Below, in pieces: positions 2,491-62,013 of a stretch of 64,000 bases of DNA (positions are counted from its first letter, which is position 1; the number at the start of each line of letters is the position of its first letter). The translations under genes were made by a program, and so were the position numbers. The notes beneath the pieces are model-generated. The model saw only the letters and a list, made by a program, of their open reading frames with translations, was not told the DNA's origin and searched no databases. The stretch lies in the sequence record NC_019517.1; one strand, 5' to 3'. Origin of the DNA: Escherichia phage FV3.

Positions 2491-2517
2491 AATAGAAAAT
2501 CCCCGCCGAAGCGGGGG
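2491..2517 (-). terminator. Rho-independent terminator (minus strand), CCCCGC-UUCG-GCGGGG hairpin plus U-tract
   Basis: Perfect 6-bp GC stem with UUCG tetraloop on the minus-strand transcript followed by ATTTTCTATTT; lies between the 126-aa gene and the SleB-like gene. Confidence 0.5.
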
Positions 2518-2529
2518 TGGTCTTAGAAA

Positions 2530-2910
2530 TTAGTCGTAGTGTGCCAGAATCTCTCCTTCGTTGCAAGTTCCCTCTACGAAGTTGTGAAGATTCCTGCATT
2601 CGTCTTGGTAGAAGAACTTACCACTTTTCAGCCGTAGACCAAACAACTCCGCATCTCCACGATGGCAAGCCTCTACAAGTTCATAGATTTCATACGGTAA
2701 CTCTCCATCGTCATGGAAGAACCCCGCTTTATCGTTGACATAGATGAAGAAATAGTCACTGCTGTCGCAAGCGTCCAATATTTTAAACCAGATTTCATCT
2801 ACATCTTTTTCTCGGATATCGATCACGCAAGTGGAGCTGCATTCGTACTCCTTCTCCGGCTCCTCGGTCAATACCACCAAGTAGTTTCCCCGCTTACCTA
2901 CTTTAGCCAT
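2530..2910 (-). CDS. Hypothetical acidic protein (126 aa)
   Basis: ORF in operon context; acidic composition; no recognisable motif. Confidence 0.4.
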   Translation of the reverse strand: MAKVGKRGNYLVVLTEEPEKEYECSSTCVIDIREKDVDEIWFKILDACDSSDYFFIYVNDKAGFFHDDGELPYEIYELVEACHRGDAELFGLRLKSGKFFYQDECRNLHNFVEGTCNEGEILAHYD

Positions 2911-2919
2911 ACAACCTCC

Positions 2920-4104
2920 TCAAGCTTTAGCTAAAATGGCGCTAAACTCTTCGCCAAACTCTTTTACAATCTTCATCAGGTTCGGGTATGCTTTGATCAG
3001 CTGAGCAACGATCTTGTCCCGGCCTTTACCAATAAGTAAGGCATTTCCTAGGGCGTTGGGTTTCATCATCGCCATAAAGACTGAGAATACAAAGTCTCGG
3101 TTCTCATCCTTGAAATTTTCCCAAAGGAAATCAAGGAAGTTTGCCACACAGCTGACAAGATCTTCGTCGGAGATACTTGCATTTTCCATCATGTTACGAA
3201 TAGCGATACACCCTTCAGACCCCAGAATCCACAAGATGTCTGGCTGCTTAGGCCCTACATACTCTTTGCAACCCCCTGCCATAATCCGACCGATTTCTGG
3301 CAAGTTTCGTTTCTTGGTGTGGTAGGTCCAGATTTCTACCGCTGCAGTGTGACCGATAGCACCTTGCAGAAGAACACGAGCCATAGCGTCAGAAATAATA
3401 CCGCTGTCAAAATCGTGCAGGATGTCAGATGCAGCAACCCAAGATCGCGGTGTAGCAAAAGCTGGACAATTAATCTCAGCCATGGCCTCATAATTATCGA
3501 TGGCTGATGGGACTCTTTTCAGATATCCAATTACCGAGGAGTGCACCCCATTAAGGAATGCATAGTCCTCAATAAACACCTCTGCATTGCTTGTAACTTC
3601 TACAATGATAAAGCGGTTAGCTAGAGGAGCTTCGAGCGCCGAAAGAACAGCACCGTCTGTAGCACGGTTACCTGCAGCTACAAAAACAGAGCCCTTAGGA
3701 AATGCATAGGTGCCGCACTTGTGGTCGAGCATAATTTGCATTGCAACCTTCTGCAGGTAGTTATCTGCATGAGTAAGCTCATCCAGAAAGATAATTCCGC
3801 TCCAGTTCGAGTCTGCAGGCCAAAATTCTGGAATTGCAAACACTGTGCGTGTAGTTCCATCTGCCTCTACAGGGATAGGTAGTCCAGATAAGTCAGCAGG
3901 ATCTTTATCTGACAGCCGCACGTCAACCAGGTTGTCATCTCGCTCACCGAACATATTATCAGCAATCTGCTTCATCACCTGACTCTTCCCCACACCCATC
4001 GGTCCTAAAATAAGAACAGATCGGTTATGACGCTGGGCAAATTGAATAATAGCTGGCAACTCGCGGACAGTGATTTGACCACTTTCGAATACGTTTCTTG
4101 ACAT
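2920..4104 (-). CDS. MoxR-like AAA+ ATPase (CobS/MoxR family, AAA_5-type)
   Basis: Walker A GPMGVGKS, Walker B IIFLDELTHAD, sensor AAGNRA; 394 aa with C-terminal extension. Confidence 0.7.
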   Translation of the reverse strand: MSRNVFESGQITVRELPAIIQFAQRHNRSVLILGPMGVGKSQVMKQIADNMFGERDDNLVDVRLSDKDPADLSGLPIPVEADGTTRTVFAIPEFWPADSNWSGIIFLDELTHADNYLQKVAMQIMLDHKCGTYAFPKGSVFVAAGNRATDGAVLSALEAPLANRFIIVEVTSNAEVFIEDYAFLNGVHSSVIGYLKRVPSAIDNYEAMAEINCPAFATPRSWVAASDILHDFDSGIISDAMARVLLQGAIGHTAAVEIWTYHTKKRNLPEIGRIMAGGCKEYVGPKQPDILWILGSEGCIAIRNMMENASISDEDLVSCVANFLDFLWENFKDENRDFVFSVFMAMMKPNALGNALLIGKGRDKIVAQLIKAYPNLMKIVKEFGEEFSAILAKA

Positions 4105-4373
4105 TAGTAAAAGTCCTCTACTTGTGTGTAAGTGTTTTCAAAGTTTTCCAAAACAGACATCACATCGGATCTGTCAATATCATACGCAACTCTCCAGCCA
4201 TATGCAACCCTTTCTGCTGTTGCCTCTTCTGGAGCTAGTCGTCTGCTGGCATAAAAGAGTGTTGGAGTACACTTTCTTGCTTGCCCTCTAACTTTCCCAT
4301 AATAATATCTGTGAATATCTTTGTCAAAATTTAATTCTTTTTCTGCACGAAGTTCGTACTGCTGGTATAACAT
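4104..4373 (-). CDS. Hypothetical protein (89 aa)
   Basis: ORF tightly packed in leftward early operon; 1-nt overlap with downstream gene. Confidence 0.4.
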   Translation of the reverse strand: MLYQQYELRAEKELNFDKDIHRYYYGKVRGQARKCTPTLFYASRRLAPEEATAERVAYGWRVAYDIDRSDVMSVLENFENTYTQVEDFY

Positions 4374-4417
4374 CTCTACTACTCCTTAAGCAGCATCCTT
4401 GCCGCCATCCCTACCCA

Positions 4418-4798
4418 CTAAAATGCAGTCCGAATCCAGACAAGGTTCTTATCTGCCCAATCATAGAGGCAAGTCATTGCACTATTGAATTGCTCACACG
4501 GAGGATAATCTTCTTCCATCTGGCGCATAGCAGAGCCTTGTGGGTAAAGCTCCCGTGCTGCAAACCACGCGTCGTAGTCATCAACGGTATCGAAGTAGTA
4601 TACAACATCCTCCAACTCAGGATCGAACTTTGAGCTATCAGGATTCAGTTGTTCAGGGAACTTGGAGCGTAACTTGCCAGCCACAATACTTGCCAACTCG
4701 CTAACATGCTTGTTGTCCCACTCTACCAGTTTCCCGTCTTCAGCTATGCGTCCTAACCACTGATCATGAAGGTCAACTGTTGTCTTCCACTGGGCCAT
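4418..4798 (-). CDS. Hypothetical protein (126 aa)
   Basis: ORF in operon context. Confidence 0.4.
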   Translation of the reverse strand: MAQWKTTVDLHDQWLGRIAEDGKLVEWDNKHVSELASIVAGKLRSKFPEQLNPDSSKFDPELEDVVYYFDTVDDYDAWFAARELYPQGSAMRQMEEDYPPCEQFNSAMTCLYDWADKNLVWIRTAF

Positions 4799-4800
4799 TA

Positions 4801-5058
4801 TCAGTTCACCTCTTCTTCTCGTTGCAGTTCAAGATACCCATAGGTCTGGATATCTTCAAGGGTGTGGAACTCTCCATCTGCTGCTAAGGCACGGACAACC
4901 TGGCATAGAGTTTTATAAGGTACTTTCTCCAAACCCAGATTCAGCGCAGGAAAAACCTTATCTAAGTCAACAAAATATACAAACTGTAGCTCACCAGTTT
5001 CAAAAGGCGTATCTTCGATAAACATCTTCTCGGCATTAGTCAAGATCTGCACTTTCAT
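4801..5058 (-). CDS. Hypothetical protein (85 aa)
   Basis: ORF in operon context. Confidence 0.4.
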   Translation of the reverse strand: MKVQILTNAEKMFIEDTPFETGELQFVYFVDLDKVFPALNLGLEKVPYKTLCQVVRALAADGEFHTLEDIQTYGYLELQREEEVN

Positions 5059-5435
5059 TATTCTACCCCCTCTTCTTTTTCTTCAGTATTAGTCTCAGTG
5101 CTACCCCACTCTGGAGTTTCCACCTCGATAGTAAACTCACGCACTACACGGTAATTGCCCATGAAGCGCTCCACTTCTTCAAGGCTTATGGAGAGGCCAT
5201 TGGCAACCAAGTCTGCAGCACCCTTCTCTACCAGGTAGTCCAGATTGGCTTCCAAGGCTTCAGGCTCAAACCCTGTCAATGCAATCATATAACCTTCCCC
5301 TTCATCAAGGAGGGCAATACAGCCCAACTGATTTTCTTTAAAAAAGCAGTGACCGTCATTATTGATTGGTTGTTCATTGCAGTAAATGGCTGCACGATAA
5401 GTGACTTTGGACATCGGTAAGGCCTCCTTAGGCAA
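5058..5435 (-). CDS. Hypothetical protein (125 aa; start may be at internal Met 8)
   Basis: ORF in operon context; overlapping stop/start junctions. Confidence 0.4.
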   Translation of the reverse strand: MPKEALPMSKVTYRAAIYCNEQPINNDGHCFFKENQLGCIALLDEGEGYMIALTGFEPEALEANLDYLVEKGAADLVANGLSISLEEVERFMGNYRVVREFTIEVETPEWGSTETNTEEKEEGVE

Positions 5436-5706
5436 CTGTCATTTTACATTCTTGAAATTTTAACACAAGACGGTGATTGTGTCTAGTGTCTAAAAAGATT
5501 TTTTCGACCATCAGGCACACGGTATAACCGTCCGTCTTGTTGACAACAAAATCCCCAGGGTGAGGGAGAATGTCTCCTGGATTGGGGAAACATAACCCGC
5601 TCAAGAAGGCATCGTCGGTGGTGGACTTAATGGATTTCCACACACTATCTGCCTGAACATTCTCACCAACATAATATACACTACCACATGACTTCATCAT
5701 AGTCAA
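5428..5706 (-). CDS. Hypothetical protein (92 aa)
   Basis: ORF overlapping neighbours by 8 and 4 nt (translational coupling). Confidence 0.4.
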   Translation of the reverse strand: MTMMKSCGSVYYVGENVQADSVWKSIKSTTDDAFLSGLCFPNPGDILPHPGDFVVNKTDGYTVCLMVEKIFLDTRHNHRLVLKFQECKMTVA

Positions 5707-6602
5707 ATCTCCGCGTAAATTAAACTGGAATCAGTATACTTCTTTAACGGGTAAATATCCTGTCCGTAGATGCCGTCATTAAACACCTCATCTACCCAAA
5801 GACTGCACTTATATCCCATCATTTCTAAAACACCCAGCTCTTCTTCGGTAAACTTATCACCGCTCTTGCAAGATGTCAACACCTCATTCTGTACTCTTGC
5901 TACCTCGAAGCGATTATTGGCAATATCGCTATTGGCGATCAAATACTCACCTAAAGGGTGTGCGGCATTAAAGATGCACAGTGGACGGTTGACGTAATAG
6001 TCTCCAGGCGTATAAAAATTGTTGAGGTCTTTTACCAGAACATTCTTATCAGTCACTTCATTTATAACATCATGCATATCGCACATCTTTATATGTTTGA
6101 GGATTCCATCCCCCATCACAAAATAAAAACTTGCTGAGACACTTTCGGCATAGATCTTACTAGATCCATTGTAGTTGTATTTTACTCGGATGCTTACAGG
6201 GGTTTTGCCTGTCGCGTTAGCCATCATCCAAAGGAACGGAAGTTCAAACTTCTGCTCTGAGGAAACAAAAGGTGAAGTTGCCAGAGATCGGAAACCACCA
6301 GAGAAGTTGAAAGTTACAGAGCCGCTCCGGCGATATGATACCGCATATTCTACTTTTATATCGACATAGCCGTTGGAGTAAGTGTGGCCTCCATTATCCA
6401 GATATGTCCACTTATCAGATCCGGATACCAACCTACGCTCAATCACCTTCATTACTACAGGAATTAGCGGGTTGGTACAAACCGATTTTGAAGTAGCTTT
6501 ATCATCCAAAGCCTCGTAAATTGCAGAAAGGATATCGCCTGCTGAGAGATTGGTTGTGATATCTTGTTTCCACCGAGTGCTAAAGCTGTTAAGATTTGCC
6601 AT
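5703..6602 (-). CDS. Hypothetical protein (300 aa), first gene of leftward early operon
   Basis: Start trimmed to the ATG (MANLNS...) preceded by AGGAG RBS; the track ORF extended to 6644 would overlap the promoter. Confidence 0.45.
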   Translation of the reverse strand: MANLNSFSTRWKQDITTNLSAGDILSAIYEALDDKATSKSVCTNPLIPVVMKVIERRLVSGSDKWTYLDNGGHTYSNGYVDIKVEYAVSYRRSGSVTFNFSGGFRSLATSPFVSSEQKFELPFLWMMANATGKTPVSIRVKYNYNGSSKIYAESVSASFYFVMGDGILKHIKMCDMHDVINEVTDKNVLVKDLNNFYTPGDYYVNRPLCIFNAAHPLGEYLIANSDIANNRFEVARVQNEVLTSCKSGDKFTEEELGVLEMMGYKCSLWVDEVFNDGIYGQDIYPLKKYTDSSLIYAEI

Positions 6603-6642
6603 GATTAAGTGCTCCTGTGTTCGTTTTCTTTCGAATGGGTGC

Positions 6643-6671
6643 ACTATATCGTGGATTTAGAGTAAAGTCAA
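6643..6671 (-). promoter_or_regulatory. Sigma70-like promoter for leftward early operon (-35 TTGACT, 17-nt spacer, -10 TATAGT)
   Basis: Minus-strand reading TTGACT-N17-TATAGT about 40 nt upstream of AGGAG RBS and the ATG at 6602. Confidence 0.45.
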
Positions 6672-6684
6672 CACGTTTTTGAGG

Positions 6685-6713
6685 TTGACATCTGTTGAGG
6701 CACTTGATAAGAT
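6685..6713 (+). promoter_or_regulatory. Sigma70-like promoter for rightward early operon (-35 TTGACA, 17-nt spacer, -10 TAAGAT)
   Basis: TTGACA at 6685-6690 and TAAGAT at 6708-6713; back-to-back with the leftward promoter. Confidence 0.4.
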
Positions 6714-6744
6714 TTCTTCACCTACAGAGCACAAGAGACAACTC

Positions 6745-7734
6745 ATGAATCTTGAAAAATATTATACACCAGAAGAGTTAGAGCGCCTGCTCAAAAAATA
6801 TAGACGCAAACAAAATAATGCACGGAAACGAGATATAGAGTTCAACCTGTCATGGGAAGAATACCTCCTATTTGGTAAAAAACTTTTAGGAGAGGGGGTG
6901 TGCGACTATACCCTTATACCTTTTGACATGCACACAGATGAAAACGGGTTGGGGAATCCTTTCTATCCATCCTTAGAGCGGATAGATGATGAAGGTCCTT
7001 ATGCGGTTGATAATTGTTGTGTGGTGGGATTGAGATGCAACTCTCTAAAGGACTGTCTGGTAGATAAAAAGACCGCAGTCTTGATTAAAGACAAAACTGA
7101 TCGAAAAATTGTCCAGCAGATGATGCTCCACCTGAGCGAAGAGCGCATGGAGAAATTGAAAGGTGATTACACTTTTGAAGATTTCATCTTGCAATACGGA
7201 ACGGAAGAGGATAAACTAGCACTCTTTGACGAAGAATGGGAGGAAGATATGTCACCAATGCAGGATTTTAAAAACTTCATGGCTAATCGTGGAGCCAACA
7301 AGCACATTTCTGACATTGTAAACGAGACTGTAGCAGAGGAGAATGAAGAAATGGCGCAACAGGCTTACGAAGAGGAAAAAGAGCCTCAGGGGGTCGAAGA
7401 AGGGCTTACAGAAGAGGTTCCTGCACTGCCTGACGATGTTGAGATTGCCAAAGCTTACACTTTCTATTGCCAGACGTTCTACGATGCAGGTATGAAAGTT
7501 GATCTGTCATTCAGTCAGTTTAAGAGCACGTATATTCGAAAATGTTGTGCTTTAACTGGTGAGCGTCTCGGGACCGGACTTAAACCACTATTAGTGACCG
7601 ATTGGAATAAAGGTTTCACCAAAGGTAACTTTATGGTAGTATCTCCAATTATGGAAAAGGCTATGACAGACCTTATGAAGACCACCCGCATGACAATGAC
7701 CGAGTTGGCTGGTATTTTCAAGCACGTTAAATAA
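6745..7734 (+). CDS. Hypothetical protein with endonuclease VII / HNH-like Zn-finger nuclease-fold motif
   Basis: Start set at ATG 6745 downstream of the promoter. Motif CDYT...HTDEN...ERIDDEGPY...NCCVVGLRCNSLK resembles T4 EndoVII HLDHDHELNGP...VRGLLCNLCN, but the catalytic His positions are not conserved; acidic middle region. Confidence 0.4.
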   Translation: MNLEKYYTPEELERLLKKYRRKQNNARKRDIEFNLSWEEYLLFGKKLLGEGVCDYTLIPFDMHTDENGLGNPFYPSLERIDDEGPYAVDNCCVVGLRCNSLKDCLVDKKTAVLIKDKTDRKIVQQMMLHLSEERMEKLKGDYTFEDFILQYGTEEDKLALFDEEWEEDMSPMQDFKNFMANRGANKHISDIVNETVAEENEEMAQQAYEEEKEPQGVEEGLTEEVPALPDDVEIAKAYTFYCQTFYDAGMKVDLSFSQFKSTYIRKCCALTGERLGTGLKPLLVTDWNKGFTKGNFMVVSPIMEKAMTDLMKTTRMTMTELAGIFKHVK

Positions 7735-7766
7735 TGACAGGGGCCAAGGCCCCTTCTGGAGTTTTA

Positions 7767-9227
7767 ATGGATAGCAGAAGTTCAGAAATCATTGCCGCAC
7801 AAAAAGATGACGCCTTGCGAATGCTGCAGGCAGCACGTATGTATCTTCTTGAAAAACTGCCGTTTTATGGCACACTGTTGTCAGGGTTGCAGTTCGTAGA
7901 AAACCACACATGGTGCTCCACCATGGCAACAGACCATAAACGCATTTATTACAGCCCTGAGTTCATTATGGGATTGGCGGATGAGCGCAAAACCATTCTT
8001 AAAGCATCTTTGACTGACAAGCAGTTTGAGATGGCTGAGGTTTTCTATTCCCCAAAATCTGTGAAAGAGGTGGCATTTCTTCTATCGCATGAGGTGGGGC
8101 ATATTATCTGTGATCATCTGGTCCGTGGCAAAAGTTTTGAGCCGGAGCTGTTCAATATTGCCTGTGATCATGTTATCAACACAGGTCTTGTGGTTGACTT
8201 TAGCAAGCCCCCTTGTGTTTTCTTCCCGAAGGGGAAAAGCACTACGTTTGTAAAAGGTAAGCCTTTTGGCTTCTTAGCTAGTTGCTACTGTGACATGAGG
8301 TTCCATGGATGGATTGCTGAGAACGTCTATGCGGTTCTTGATAAGCAAAGAGATCAGAATAGCGGTAAAAGTAAGAACGGTAAAGGCGAGAACTCTCAAG
8401 GAGATAAACGACAAACCGACGATCACATGAGTGGTAACGGTGGCACTAGTGATGATCTTGGAAAGGCGATGGGGTATGATCAGCCACAACCAGTGATCAG
8501 CCAATCTGATAAGGATCAAGCCATGCAGGACTCTGGTGACATGTTGGAAGCAGCAATGCAGGCTTCCGGAGGTCGTTGCCCTGAGGCTGTGCGTGAGTTT
8601 GTCAAGAACAGAGGTAAGCCTGTAATCAATTATATAGACATCATTAAACAACGTATGCTGTCTAAACGAAAGGCTGAACTAACCTATAGAAAACCCGGTC
8701 GCCGATCTGGGTCTTTGACCAGCACAATGCGAAAAGTTGGAGCTATAAACAAGAATCAGCACGTTGTTGTTCCTGGTCGTAATCCGGAAAACACTATAGA
8801 TATTGTGGTGGCTTTAGACGTTTCTGGATCGATCTCACAAAGAACTTTAAAGAAAATGTTCAATGAGATCACTGGGTTGTGCAATCTGTATAAAGAGTTC
8901 AAGGTTACGATGTTCTGTTGGTCAACTGAGGTTGGAGAGGTTAAAGTATACACTCGCGGGAACATCGACGAGATGATCAACTACGAGGTCCACTCAACAT
9001 GGGGCACAACAGCCGCTTGCGTGTTCGAGTATCTGGACGCTAACATACCAAATGCAAAAGATGTCATCGTCCTGACCGACCTCTACTTTGAGCACAACTT
9101 TGAACAAAAGGTTGTTGACAACAAGTGGAAAAAGTACGATACTTTATGGGTTCTCACCGAAGGGTATAATAAAAATTATATCCCAAGCTTTGGGAAAACT
9201 GTAGAATTGATCGAGTACGCTAAATAA
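7767..9227 (+). CDS. Putative metallopeptidase (HExxH) domain + von Willebrand factor A domain protein (DUF2201/CobT-like MoxR partner)
   Basis: HEVGHIICDH zinc-peptidase-like motif in N-terminal half; MIDAS motif DVSGSIS in C-terminal half; start set at ATG 7767 with GGAG RBS (alternative ATG at 7734). Confidence 0.65.
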   Translation: MDSRSSEIIAAQKDDALRMLQAARMYLLEKLPFYGTLLSGLQFVENHTWCSTMATDHKRIYYSPEFIMGLADERKTILKASLTDKQFEMAEVFYSPKSVKEVAFLLSHEVGHIICDHLVRGKSFEPELFNIACDHVINTGLVVDFSKPPCVFFPKGKSTTFVKGKPFGFLASCYCDMRFHGWIAENVYAVLDKQRDQNSGKSKNGKGENSQGDKRQTDDHMSGNGGTSDDLGKAMGYDQPQPVISQSDKDQAMQDSGDMLEAAMQASGGRCPEAVREFVKNRGKPVINYIDIIKQRMLSKRKAELTYRKPGRRSGSLTSTMRKVGAINKNQHVVVPGRNPENTIDIVVALDVSGSISQRTLKKMFNEITGLCNLYKEFKVTMFCWSTEVGEVKVYTRGNIDEMINYEVHSTWGTTAACVFEYLDANIPNAKDVIVLTDLYFEHNFEQKVVDNKWKKYDTLWVLTEGYNKNYIPSFGKTVELIEYAK

Positions 9228-9242
9228 GAGAGGATGTTATTT

Positions 9243-9503
9243 ATGGCAACAGAAGTAGTAATTAAAGCTGAACGCCCAGTTAAAAAAGCTATCAACACGT
9301 TCCCTGTAGGAACCATTGTGAGCATGATTACAGAGTCAGGTCGTGTATCTACACTGCTAATCGTGAAATCTGCATGCTCATCTTGTGTGTGGGCATATGA
9401 TCTTGACGAGAAAGAACTGAAAGATTTTGTTGGAGAACTGAAAGCAACAGAGCTTGACGCTCGTATTGAAGTATTTGGTGAAACCATGGAGGAAGAGCAA
9501 TGA
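9243..9503 (+). CDS. Small hypothetical protein, paralog 1 of tandem triplet
   Basis: GAGAGGA RBS; shares pattern F-x-x-G-x-(I/V)-V ... C ... D ... EI with the next two genes. Confidence 0.45.
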   Translation: MATEVVIKAERPVKKAINTFPVGTIVSMITESGRVSTLLIVKSACSSCVWAYDLDEKELKDFVGELKATELDARIEVFGETMEEEQ

Positions 9504-9763
9504 CCACAAAAATCACCATTGCAGAGCCGAAAGCTAACACGCAGCCTATCGAAAAGTTTAAATGCGGTGAGGTAGTAACATTCACACCGGACAATGAAGA
9601 TGCTAAGATTTTCGCCATGGTCACAGCCGAGTGGATGTGTGACAACACCACACAGGTTCTGCGTTTTGACACCTATCTTACAGATGAAATAAGGAACGAC
9701 AAGATCGTGACTGGTGTAGATACTGAGATTGTTTTCTACAAGAGCTTCGTAGAGGGTTTCTAA
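9500..9763 (+). CDS. Small hypothetical protein, paralog 2 of tandem triplet
   Basis: ATGA overlap with upstream gene; similar size and motif pattern. Confidence 0.45.
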   Translation: MTTKITIAEPKANTQPIEKFKCGEVVTFTPDNEDAKIFAMVTAEWMCDNTTQVLRFDTYLTDEIRNDKIVTGVDTEIVFYKSFVEGF

Positions 9764-9764
9764 T

Positions 9765-10001
9765 ATGGCAAGAATTCGTAAGTTGTCCAACAATCAAACT
9801 GTGAAAGATTTTGAACCCGGAGAGATTCTGTATGTTCATGATGCAGATGACGAAGGAGAAGATCTTGTTATGCTACTAGGGCATGCTGCTGAGGACGGAT
9901 GCATCCAGGCTGTTTTTCTTGAAACAGCTATGGTGCACTGGATAGAGCTGGACCTGAAAGCACGAAAACCTAAAGCAGAGATCTTGATTTACGAAGATTA
10001 A
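9765..10001 (+). CDS. Small hypothetical protein, paralog 3 of tandem triplet
   Basis: 1-nt spacer to upstream gene; similar size and motif pattern. Confidence 0.45.
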   Translation: MARIRKLSNNQTVKDFEPGEILYVHDADDEGEDLVMLLGHAAEDGCIQAVFLETAMVHWIELDLKARKPKAEILIYED

Positions 10002-61200: not shown

Positions 61201-61277
61201 TGGTCTCCACGGAGTGATTCGAACACTCGACCTCCTGATCCCAAATCAGGCGCTCTACCAAGCTGAGCTACGCGGAG
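61201..61277 (-). tRNA. tRNA-Pro (anticodon TGG)
   Basis: Manual cloverleaf: acceptor CTCCGCG/CGTGGAG, D-stem GCTC/GAGC, anticodon loop TTTGGGA, T-loop TTCGAAT, encoded CCA. Confidence 0.7.
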
Positions 61278-61287
61278 TATTTATAAT

Positions 61288-61362
61288 TTGGTGGCCCTGG
61301 GTGGAATTGAACCACCGTCTGGCGATTATGAGTCGCTTGCTTGAACCTTCCAGCTACAGGGC
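61288..61362 (-). tRNA. tRNA-Met (anticodon CAT)
   Basis: Acceptor GGCCCTG/CAGGGCC, anticodon loop CTCATAA, T-arm GGTGG-TTCAATT-CCACC, encoded CCA. Confidence 0.6.
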
Positions 61363-61363
61363 C

Positions 61364-61440
61364 ATGGTGCTGATAGCAGGACTCGAACCTGCAACCTATT
61401 GATTACAAATCAATTGCACTACCAATTGTGCTACATCAGC
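61364..61440 (-). tRNA. tRNA-Thr (anticodon TGT)
   Basis: Acceptor GCTGATG/TATCAGC, D-stem GCAC/GTGC, anticodon arm ATTGA-TTTGTAA-TCAAT, T-loop TTCGAGT, encoded CCA. Confidence 0.7.
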
Positions 61441-61443
61441 AAA

Positions 61444-61544
61444 AAGGTGCTAGGTGATGGAATCGAACCACCTATGTATTCAACGACTACCTCGTCTATT
61501 TTCAGGATTAAAAATCCTCGCCCTTGCCAAAGGGCTTACCTAGC
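61444..61544 (-). tRNA. Atypical tRNA-like gene (about 100 nt); anticodon loop reads TTT (Lys-like) with an about 30-nt variable-region insertion
   Basis: Perfect 7-bp acceptor pairing GCTAGGT/ACCTAGC about 100 nt apart, D-arm GCCC-TTTGGCAA-GGGC, anticodon arm AGGA-TTTTTAA-TCCT, T-arm GGTGG-TTCGATT-CCATC; CCA not fully encoded. Confidence 0.4.
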
Positions 61545-61642
61545 TCAGTATGTTGACCATGTTGCTAGTCGGCGATGACGACTGTAACATTTGATAATCC
61601 GGTTCTGCTTCCGGCTTTCGCTTAATTACAAGGTCAACAATA

Positions 61643-61733
61643 TGGCTGAGGGTAATGGAATCGAACCATCATCGAGTCATCCTCAACGGGACGGTTTTCA
61701 AGACCGCTTGAGCACCATTGCTCCCTACCCTCA
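61643..61733 (-). tRNA. tRNA-Ser (anticodon TGA), type II with long variable arm
   Basis: Acceptor TGAGGGT/ACCCTCA, anticodon region GCGGTCTTGAAAACCGT similar to E. coli tRNA-Ser(UGA), T-loop TTCGATT, encoded GCCA. Confidence 0.65.
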
Positions 61734-61847
61734 TTTATAAACAATACTGATAATGACACTGATTTTCGAGCAGTTAGTGACTAGTATAAACGACGATAAA
61801 TATCAATGCCATTATCTGTATGATTTATGCATTTAAAAATATAAATT

Positions 61848-61934
61848 TGGTGGGGAGTGGTGGAGTCGAACCACCCGAGTCGCAATGACAATAGATTTAC
61901 AGTCTACACCGCTACCTCTACGGGATAACTCCCC
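61848..61934 (-). tRNA. tRNA-Tyr (anticodon GTA), type II
   Basis: Acceptor GGGGAGT/ACTCCCC, anticodon arm AGACTGTAAATCT as in E. coli tRNA-Tyr, long variable arm, T-loop TTCGACT, encoded CCA. Confidence 0.7.
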
Positions 61935-61938
61935 AATT

Positions 61939-62013
61939 TGGCACCCCGTACTGGACTCGAACCAGTGTCAACGGCTTAGAAGGCCGCTGCTTTATCCACT
62001 AAGCTAACAGGGC
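61939..62013 (-). tRNA. tRNA-Arg (anticodon TCT)
   Basis: Acceptor GCCCTGT/ACGGGGT (with G-U pairs), D-stem GCTT/AAGC, anticodon arm GCGGC-CTTCTAA-GCCGT, T-arm ACTGG-TTCGAGT-CCAGT, encoded CCA. Confidence 0.65.

Follow-up and report, generated by a model that had tools for sequence, protein, structure and literature searches.

Split genes for a MoxR-type ATPase and a metallopeptidase-like VWA protein in Escherichia phage FV3: a conserved module with a candidate role in overcoming host defence

Escherichia phage FV3 (an rV5-like phage of the genus Vequintavirus; sequence record NC_019517.1) encodes, within the 64,000 nucleotides analysed here (the window), a MoxR-class AAA+ ATPase and a protein that joins a zincin-like domain bearing an HExxH motif to a von Willebrand factor A (VWA) domain bearing a MIDAS (an adhesion site that depends on metal ions). 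The two genes are on opposite strands and separated by 3.66 kb that contains seven annotated genes; the question raised by this locus is whether the two proteins work as one machine and, if so, to what end. Both open reading frames (ORFs) were confirmed where an earlier note on this DNA had placed them, either side of back-to-back sigma70-like promoter matches (Table 1). The explanation that we favour, at a probability of roughly 0.6, is that each gene supplies one of the two subunits of a single phage remodelling machine, of the MoxR-VWA kind and the N4 gp24/gp25 family, expressed early from host-type promoters, dispensable on a defence-poor laboratory host and neutralising host immunity, at least in the form of the defence system DS-28.

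The class of the ATPase had to be reached indirectly. All matches to Pfam AAA families fell under the curated cut-offs (AAA_5, 17.1 bits against a cut-off of 22; bpMoxR, 15.8 against 27), and in NCBIfam and PDB sequence searches only the P-loop was recognised. Among its 5,772 homologues, those at ~30-34% identity over 85% of the length (E~1e-42) carry AAA_3 (the MoxR family), AAA_5 and sometimes bpMoxR. Because the protein's own scores are sub-threshold while these homologues match, its Pfam membership holds by transitive homology only. The Walker A motif GPMGVGKS occupies residues 34-41 (window 3982-4005), and Walker B is D108-E109 within FLDE (window 3778-3783); sensor-1 and its arginine are N146-R147, and a PLANRF motif ends at R164. 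The residues G37xGK40S, D108-E109, N146-R147 and R164 are invariant in 22 ATPase sequences, down to 29% identity, and so in the family alignment is PLxNRF, which is typical of MoxR.

Structural comparisons gave the same picture. The best match of the ATPase family profile to PDB sequences was to the midasin AAA_5 modules (E=9e-11). An AlphaFold2 model of the ATPase (predicted local distance difference test score, pLDDT, 85) places beta-hairpins at residues 75-90 and ~129-134, where the helix-2 insert and the pre-sensor-1 hairpin are expected. The top 16 Foldseek matches to this model were all NorQ or CbbQ2 (E~1e-7; target template modelling score, 0.58-0.65), and the MoxR protein CHU_0153 was also matched. 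The C-terminus forms a helical extension of ~120 aa, which NorQ and CbbQ are without. By transitive homology, conserved motifs and predicted fold, the protein is thus a MoxR-class ATPase.

For the second protein, the start at 7767 is preferred over that of the mechanical ORF at 7734, since a GGAG Shine-Dalgarno sequence lies 7 nt upstream of 7767, no ribosome-binding site accompanies 7734 and the N-termini of homologues align to 7767. Pfam assigns it DUF2201_N ('putative metallopeptidase', E=5e-28) and DUF2201 ('VWA-like', E=6.5e-11), both over the curated cut-offs. The N-domain (residues 1-200, modelled at pLDDT >90) contains HEVGH at residues 108-112 (window 8088-8102). The VWA domain (residues ~344-486; window 8796-9224) has the VWA (Rossmann-like) fold and contains DVSGSIS at residues 351-357 (window 8817-8837), of which the MIDAS motif DVSGS (8817-8831) is completed by T414 and D438. 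Between the two domains lie a disordered stretch rich in acidic residues and glycine (200-229) and a basic linker that is conserved (R312-R313, P336). Sub-threshold matches of the N-domain to Peptidase_M48, SprT-like, DUF5700 and PhageMetallopep all fall at the HExxH helix; the N-domain had no PDB sequence match, and the fold-search lists for the whole protein were occupied by VWA matches.

Both predicted active sites stand out in a family alignment of 154 diverse representatives, with a median identity of 28% to the window protein. Just 19 of its 486 columns are conserved at 95% or more, among them the whole MIDAS together with H108, H112, D134 and N138. In the MIDAS, D351, S353 and S355 are conserved in 100% of the sequences, D438 in 99% and T414 in 97%; in the zinc site, the values are 100% for H108, 93% for E109 and 99% for H112, and H117 (94%) and D134 (100%) are candidate third zinc ligands. 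Such near-invariance across the family argues that both predicted active sites are under strong selection, and their place among the few near-invariant positions is one of the observations contributed by the present analysis. The earlier note had proposed a MoxR-type ATPase and a zincin-like/VWA-MIDAS protein, and homologues, motifs and folds, with Pfam for the second protein, bear this out. As a profile-level check it had named AAA_5 for the first protein and VWA and metallopeptidase domains for the second; the latter were assigned above cut-off, and AAA_5 was not.

Public labels for the VWA-peptidase gene are less reliable. We reject 'HNH endonuclease', the label of phrog_1314, as the protein has no HNH domain and consists of a zincin-like and a VWA domain. 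This mislabel is widespread in GenBank (e.g. NC_011041 rV5, NC_031039 AR9 and NC_027364 PBECO4), apparently inherited via the phrog_1314 annotation. Kinship of the pair to known defence-system proteins was likewise rejected: against the PADLOC defence-system models the ATPase gave P-loop-level noise only (E>=5.6e-4, in the Walker A region) and the VWA protein gave no match.

Do the two genes belong together? Pairing was surveyed with an iterated ATPase profile in 79 loci, including 78 fetched viral loci that encode proteins related to the VWA protein (identity 23-98%). In 75 of the 79 the profile found an ATPase homologue, in each case on the upstream side of the VWA gene. It lay on the same strand less than 150 bp away in 20 loci, where some of the genes overlap or are 2 bp apart, at 0.36-1.7 kb in 14 loci and at 3.8-8.5 kb in 21. 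The 20 rV5-like and PVP-SE1-like loci have it on the opposite strand, 3.4-5.2 kb off, and the inversion was seen only in this rV5/PVP-SE1 lineage; W70 and CR3-like relatives keep the adjacent form. Three of the four loci with no nearby ATPase end at a contig edge, and the fourth has its ATPase at least 36 kb away, with both genes kept. Direct adjacency was also found in a 578-kb phage-like contig, a 143-kb contig, Bacillus phage AR9 and coliphage phAPEC6, and in a 1.25-Mb cellular contig an AAA_3/AAA_5 gene lies 46 bp upstream of the VWA gene. Of 50,697 phage records, 667 gave a match to the VWA protein and 811 to the ATPase, with near-identical genus profiles.

These data show that the pairing is real and that the ATPase and the VWA protein are halves of one conserved module, as the earlier note had supposed: in many distant phages, in AR9 and phAPEC6 and in the cellular contig, they lie side by side on one strand. 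Because adjacency is found elsewhere and opposite strands only in the rV5/PVP-SE1 lineage, we conclude that the split arrangement arose by an inversion, specific to that lineage, within an ancient operon of two genes. That the split is a clade-specific inversion, and that neither gene has been lost even where the two have become fully unlinked, is a second contribution of this analysis. Clustering of all neighbours in the surveyed loci gave no third partner gene common to the clades, only an HD_4 gene in some marine clades and, in the split lineages, the Srd-like gene that neighbours the VWA-peptidase gene in the window.

Two neighbourhoods within the survey deserve mention in their own right. 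In 25 marine viral loci from four clades, a gene for an HD_4 protein (a RelA/SpoT-type HD hydrolase) lies directly upstream of the VWA-peptidase gene (e.g. 9255-9785 in locus L065) and may encode a phage alarmone hydrolase linked to the module. In the 578-kb phage-like contig (L081, 1592-8591), the pair sits amid HSP20, ClpS and ClpP genes in a proteostasis-like cluster.

The pair has been recognised before. It corresponds to the N4 gp24/gp25 core pair, which public records already annotate and which a 2021 study described in jumbo phages (Iyer et al. 2021, Viruses 13:63). N4 gp24 (AAA) and gp25 (vWFA) are two of the 14 N4-like core genes, are carried on middle transcripts and are of unknown function; AR9 g028 and g029 share a common early transcription start site and have parallel early transcript levels. 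A tblastn search matched many Schitoviridae, including genes labelled 'N4 gp25-like protein' (E~1e-17) and their ATPases, and phAPEC6 gp264c carries the same N4 gp25-like annotation. In N4, AR9 and the RaK2/PBECO4-type jumbo phages, the two families and their architecture (MoxR ATPase; zincin-like N-domain plus VWA) are the same as here, and the pair is non-structural with early or middle expression. The differences are that protein identity is only 20-28% and that in those phages the genes are adjacent and co-directional, whereas here the ATPase gene is inverted onto the other arm of a divergent promoter region. The N4-type order (ATPase then VWA, adjacent and co-directional) is thus absent from this phage and its clade, which carry a rearranged variant of the module.

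Among characterised systems, NorQ-NorD and CbbQ-CbbO are the closest: they provide the closest solved folds for the ATPase, they are two-gene modules and their VWA partner has a complete MIDAS. Their clients, however, are metabolic metalloenzymes (NO reductase and Rubisco), and the N-domains of NorD and CbbO are unrelated to the phage N-domain and lack HExxH. The phage VWA domain is also far smaller than theirs, with no evident finger, and the phage ATPase has its additional C-terminal helical domain. Fold alignment to the NorD VWA spans more columns than alignment to other VWA domains.

One alternative is that the phage pair matures a phage or host metalloenzyme, for instance one of nucleotide metabolism, by inserting a metal cofactor or activating the enzyme as CobS/CobT, BchI/BchD, NorQD and CbbQO do. 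Such is the commonest role of cellular MoxR-VWA pairs, and thymidylate synthase and other genes of nucleotide metabolism are found close to the pair in N4-like phages and phAPEC6. With cobaltochelatase, a CobS/CobT label being found on some cyanophage genes, the phage pair has in common the broad logic of an AAA+ (AAA_5-like) protein and a VWA protein; the N-terminal domain differs from that of the phage VWA-peptidase. We reject the CobS/CobT reading: Pfam and NCBIfam gave no CobS, CobT, CobN or chelatase family match, in agreement with the earlier note's remark that there is no cobalamin context, and no such label occurs in the related records searched. That note had also held that homologues are often labelled CobS/CobT, which those records contradict; they say 'MoxR ATPase', 'putative metallopeptidase' (in close relatives, 'putative metallopeptidase / VWA-like'), 'N4 gp25-like' or, wrongly, 'HNH endonuclease'. 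As the N-domain is zincin-like and not of the chelatase or NorD/CbbO type, no conserved third gene offers itself as a client and the pair is dispensable on K-12 while being needed on a defence-carrying host (see below), a role in cofactor insertion is very unlikely.

Genetic evidence on function comes from Bas54 (Escherichia phage MaxBurger), another isolate of the same genus. Its genes bas54_0063 (MoxR ATPase) and bas54_0055 (putative metallopeptidase) are direct syntenic orthologues of the pair, 98.7% and 98.1% identical, with no material difference from this phage, so the phenotypes recorded in Bas54 should transfer. The HIDEN-SEQ preprint (bioRxiv 10.1101/2025.11.20.689424) reports transposon sequencing (Tn-seq) of Bas54. 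On K-12, insertions occupied 60 of the 64 TA sites of bas54_0063 and 81 of the 86 of bas54_0055, and neither gene is essential. The ATPase gene bas54_0063 gave zero reads on the uropathogenic strain CFE311 (log2 fold change -7.23, q=0). The supplement of the same preprint shows a 4.6-fold drop for the VWA-peptidase gene (log2 fold change -2.20, p=0.0009, q=0.009), with no change in the seven intervening genes (bas54_0056-0062, orthologous to those in the window) or in flanking genes, rIIA and rIIB included.

Clean knockouts were made of the ATPase gene and of bas54_0140, an unrelated 99-aa gene (log2 fold change -5.48 on CFE311), and according to the authors both are 'specifically required to overcome DS-28' (bioRxiv 10.1101/2025.11.20.689424). 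DS-28 is a predicted two-gene defence system cloned from CFE311, of an uncharacterised, plasmid-associated family. The co-depletion of the VWA-peptidase with the ATPase on the DS-28 host goes unmentioned by the authors and is contributed by the present analysis. Of the functions that the earlier note had left open, anti-defence thus gains experimental support for the ATPase orthologue; the knockout on a defence-carrying host that it had proposed had already been performed for the ATPase in this near-identical phage, with DS-28 sensitivity as the outcome. The window contains no counterpart of bas54_0140, an exact 20-mer scan for the DS-28 sequence gave no match, and the CRISPRi-ART work and two phage Tn-seq papers covered no phage carrying the ATPase/VWA-peptidase pair.

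Two further points about this dataset were noticed. The Bas54 gene bas54_0068 ('DNA helicase'), which is next to rIIB and corresponds to a position just beyond the window start, is non-essential on K-12 and, on CFE311, depleted as strongly as the ATPase gene (log2 fold change -6.32, q=0), and is not discussed in the preprint text. In HIDEN-SEQ supplementary file 9, the sheet 'K-12_vs_CFE303' repeats the TRANSIT command and the numbers of 'K-12_vs_CFE311' (Data S6, S7); given these identical sheets, the CFE303 table is apparently absent from the deposited file.

The Bas54 data also bear on a published proposal that such a pair acts as a chaperone in virion assembly, with structural proteins being processed by proteolysis (Iyer et al. 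2021, Viruses 13:63). It was made by analogy with p618 (MoxR) and p892 (VWA) of Acidianus two-tailed virus, according to the same paper likewise a virus-encoded MoxR-VWA pair. In that archaeal virus, however, the pair takes part in extracellular tail development and has no peptidase domain, whereas the phage pair is not needed to make virions: in Bas54 neither gene is essential, while no insertions are seen in head and tail genes. By implication, the Tn-seq data point to deletion mutants with normal burst size, particle morphology and protein processing. Virion preparations of phAPEC6 contained the ATPase homologue gp265c (6 peptides, 19% coverage), but its VWA partner was not detected there, and carry-over is likely since the preparation also held thymidylate synthase. 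A prohead protease exists separately (bas54_0006), the N4 pair is expressed in the middle period and the AR9 pair early, and AR9 virion proteins come from other genes. On dispensability and timing, virion maturation, another function that the earlier note had left open, is the least probable of the roles considered here and can nearly be set aside.

A different possibility is that the split reflects functional uncoupling, so that in Vequintavirus the ATPase acts against DS-28 with bas54_0140 or alone, independently of the VWA-peptidase. The genes are in separate transcription units here and at least 36 kb apart in one relative, and the depletion of the ATPase (-7.23) and bas54_0140 (-5.48) is much stronger than that of the VWA-peptidase (-2.20). 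On the other hand, every lineage examined keeps both genes, including the one in which they are unlinked; this phage has every residue of the MIDAS and of the zinc site intact; and the VWA-peptidase is still significantly depleted on CFE311 when the seven intervening genes are not. We therefore consider uncoupling rather improbable.

The wide distribution of the pair is better explained, at first sight, by a general host-takeover machine that remodels or degrades a host housekeeping complex early in infection (e.g. transcription, proteostasis or envelope proteins), with DS-28 sensitivity arising indirectly from a slower or altered takeover. Core status in N4-like phages and very wide occurrence fit such a general role better than the counteraction of one rare system. 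Expression is early or middle, the neighbours are of takeover type (Srd-like anti-sigma, rIIA), and the HSP20, ClpS and ClpP genes around the pair in the 578-kb contig point in the same direction. Against it, insertions at 94% of TA sites in both genes on K-12 came with no reported fitness cost, and the knockout phenotype was, per the authors, specific to DS-28 among that strain's cloned systems. We regard takeover as unlikely to be the main role, and return to the reading in which the pair acts as one machine against host immunity.

How might such a machine work? Structures and mutagenesis of NorQ-NorD provide a template: the MoxR ring is plugged by the VWA domain, the MIDAS contacts the client, at an acidic patch, and not the ATPase, specificity for the client comes from the N-terminal domain, and a linker is put under strain as ATP is hydrolysed. 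By analogy with NorQ-NorD, CbbQ-CbbO and Rea1, the phage ATPase would assemble as a hexameric ring, on which a single VWA-peptidase would dock through its VWA domain or its conserved basic linker; a 6:1 ring-plus-adaptor mode of action, as in NorQ-NorD and CbbQ-CbbO, is likely on this comparison. The Mg-loaded MIDAS, together with the N-terminal domain, could then grip an acidic site of the target protein, ATP hydrolysis would strain or partly unfold the target, and the HExxH domain might then cleave it. We infer the physical complex, the hexamer, the identity of the target and any proteolysis. Early timing in this phage is likewise presumed, as timing has been measured only in AR9 (early) and N4 (middle).

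A bolder version holds that the pair is an ATP-driven, target-selective protease or unfoldase that destroys or dismantles immune proteins, DS-28 and probably others, with the VWA-MIDAS as clamp, the zincin as blade and the MoxR protein as motor, and that it is a core module of N4-like, rV5-like and jumbo phages. This version is tentative, and we think it doubtful in its entirety. If it were true, energy-dependent removal of host immune proteins would add a new class to the known counter-defences and a new task to those of MoxR-VWA systems.

Several observations weigh against the favoured explanation. The anti-defence evidence comes from a single preprint, in which only the ATPase of the pair was validated by clean knockout. 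The ATPase may not act strictly through the VWA-peptidase, since the effect of the latter is weaker by ~30-fold and the other gene validated, bas54_0140, is unrelated. DS-28 is rare and plasmid-borne, whereas the pair belongs to the core of N4-like phages and is frequent across many lineages, a pattern that suggests a primary role which is broader or different; from its very wide distribution, we suspect that DS-28 is not the sole, and perhaps not the primary, target. The peptidase assignment consists of a motif, one uncharacterised Pfam family (DUF2201_N) and sub-threshold zincin matches, with no solved structure matched, and E109 of HExxH is replaced in 7% of family members. Finally, the VWA domain in the model is compact (140 aa), with no obvious NorD-type finger insertion, though the conserved basic linker precedes it.

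Viewed as a finding from a genome scan, the pair offers nothing beyond public annotation and literature, and its greater interest is as an experimental target. It is among the most widely conserved phage modules of unknown function, present in hundreds of phage genomes and belonging to a family with thousands of 50%-identity clusters. Vequintavirus provides a tractable phenotype: neither gene is required on K-12, and the ATPase becomes necessary against DS-28. With this phenotype, the role of the VWA-peptidase, its use of MIDAS and HExxH and its target become testable with a few point mutants.

The arrangement of the locus around the pair is summarised in Table 1. With starts as in annotated relatives (6602 and 6745), the gap between the divergent arms measures 142 bp, and it holds two promoter-like sites whose -35 boxes are separated by 13 bp. 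Promoter-like matches across the whole region numbered 16, compared with 12.7 +/- 3.4 in shuffles, and are thus not above chance. A TTGACA-type site (10-11 of 12 matches) recurs at the equivalent gap of PVP-SE1-like relatives, whose proteins are just 44-48% identical. Because the number of sites does not exceed that in shuffles, support for the promoters derives from their position and from the conservation of the rightward site, rather than from statistics. GC skew switches sign at ~6.6 kb, the point at which transcription diverges.

Table 1. Features of the locus, in window coordinates
Feature	Position	Strand	Remarks
Intrinsic-terminator-like hairpin	2501..2516	-	6 G-C pairs + T run; one gene past the ATPase gene; putative
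MoxR-class AAA+ ATPase	2920..4104	-	394 aa; phrog_1297, E=1.6e-110
89-aa ORF	4104..4373	-	stop overlaps ATPase start (TAATG); context only, not a demonstrated component
Sigma70-like promoter match	6643..6671	-	TTGACT-17-TATAGT; faces the ATPase-gene arm; putative function
Sigma70-like promoter match	6685..6713	+	TTGACA-17-TAAGAT, TG upstream of -10; faces the VWA-peptidase arm; putative function
Srd/anti-sigma-like gene	6745..7734	+	phrog_3118; first of the rightward arm, directly upstream of the VWA-peptidase gene; context only, not a demonstrated component
Zincin-like/VWA-MIDAS protein	7767..9227	+	486 aa; Pfam DUF2201_N + DUF2201

The block that holds both genes also contains rIIA (1-1983), a cell-wall hydrolase gene, numerous small ORFs and the Srd/anti-sigma-like gene. 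The Bas54 orthologue of the last, bas54_0056, is non-essential and unaffected on CFE311 by Tn-seq. The 89-aa ORF next to the ATPase gene is labelled 'ATPase' through phrog_13164, yet it has no P-loop and no Pfam match, and its orthologue bas54_0062 showed no depletion on CFE311 in the same Tn-seq data. Inside this ORF sits the best sigma70-like match of the region (4327..4299, 11/12), which could serve as an internal promoter for the ATPase gene. The terminator-like hairpin is likely to mark the 3' end of the leftward transcription unit.

At the nucleotide level, the region of the pair is 97.5% identical to Escherichia phage vB_EcoM_SYGMH1 and 93-97% identical to ~120 rV5-like phages (Vequintavirus). 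Sixteen GenBank records of the MG0656xx series, titled 'Campylobacter phage' with C. jejuni as host, are ~93.5-93.7% identical to window 2500-9500; given this match to an rV5-like region of E. coli phages, C. jejuni as their host looks doubtful.

Three minor features complete the description of the window. A palindrome rich in G+C, GGGGCCAAGGCCCC, lies at 7741-7754, after the stop codon of the Srd-like gene and before the VWA-peptidase start codon; as the plus strand has no T run, it may be an RNA stability or processing element. The gene at 5703-6602 (minus strand) is called 'putative alpha 1-3 fucosyltransferase' in relatives; here it has no Pfam or NCBIfam match and falls in phrog_12338 (function unknown), so the label is unsupported by these scans. 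At some distance from the pair, seven clustered tRNA genes (Pro, Met, Thr, Ser, Tyr, Arg) occupy 61201-62013 on the minus strand, and include a 99-nt 'tRNA-???' at 61446-61544 for which ARAGORN gives the four-base anticodon 'atcc' and which scores just 35.5 bits against the Rfam tRNA model.

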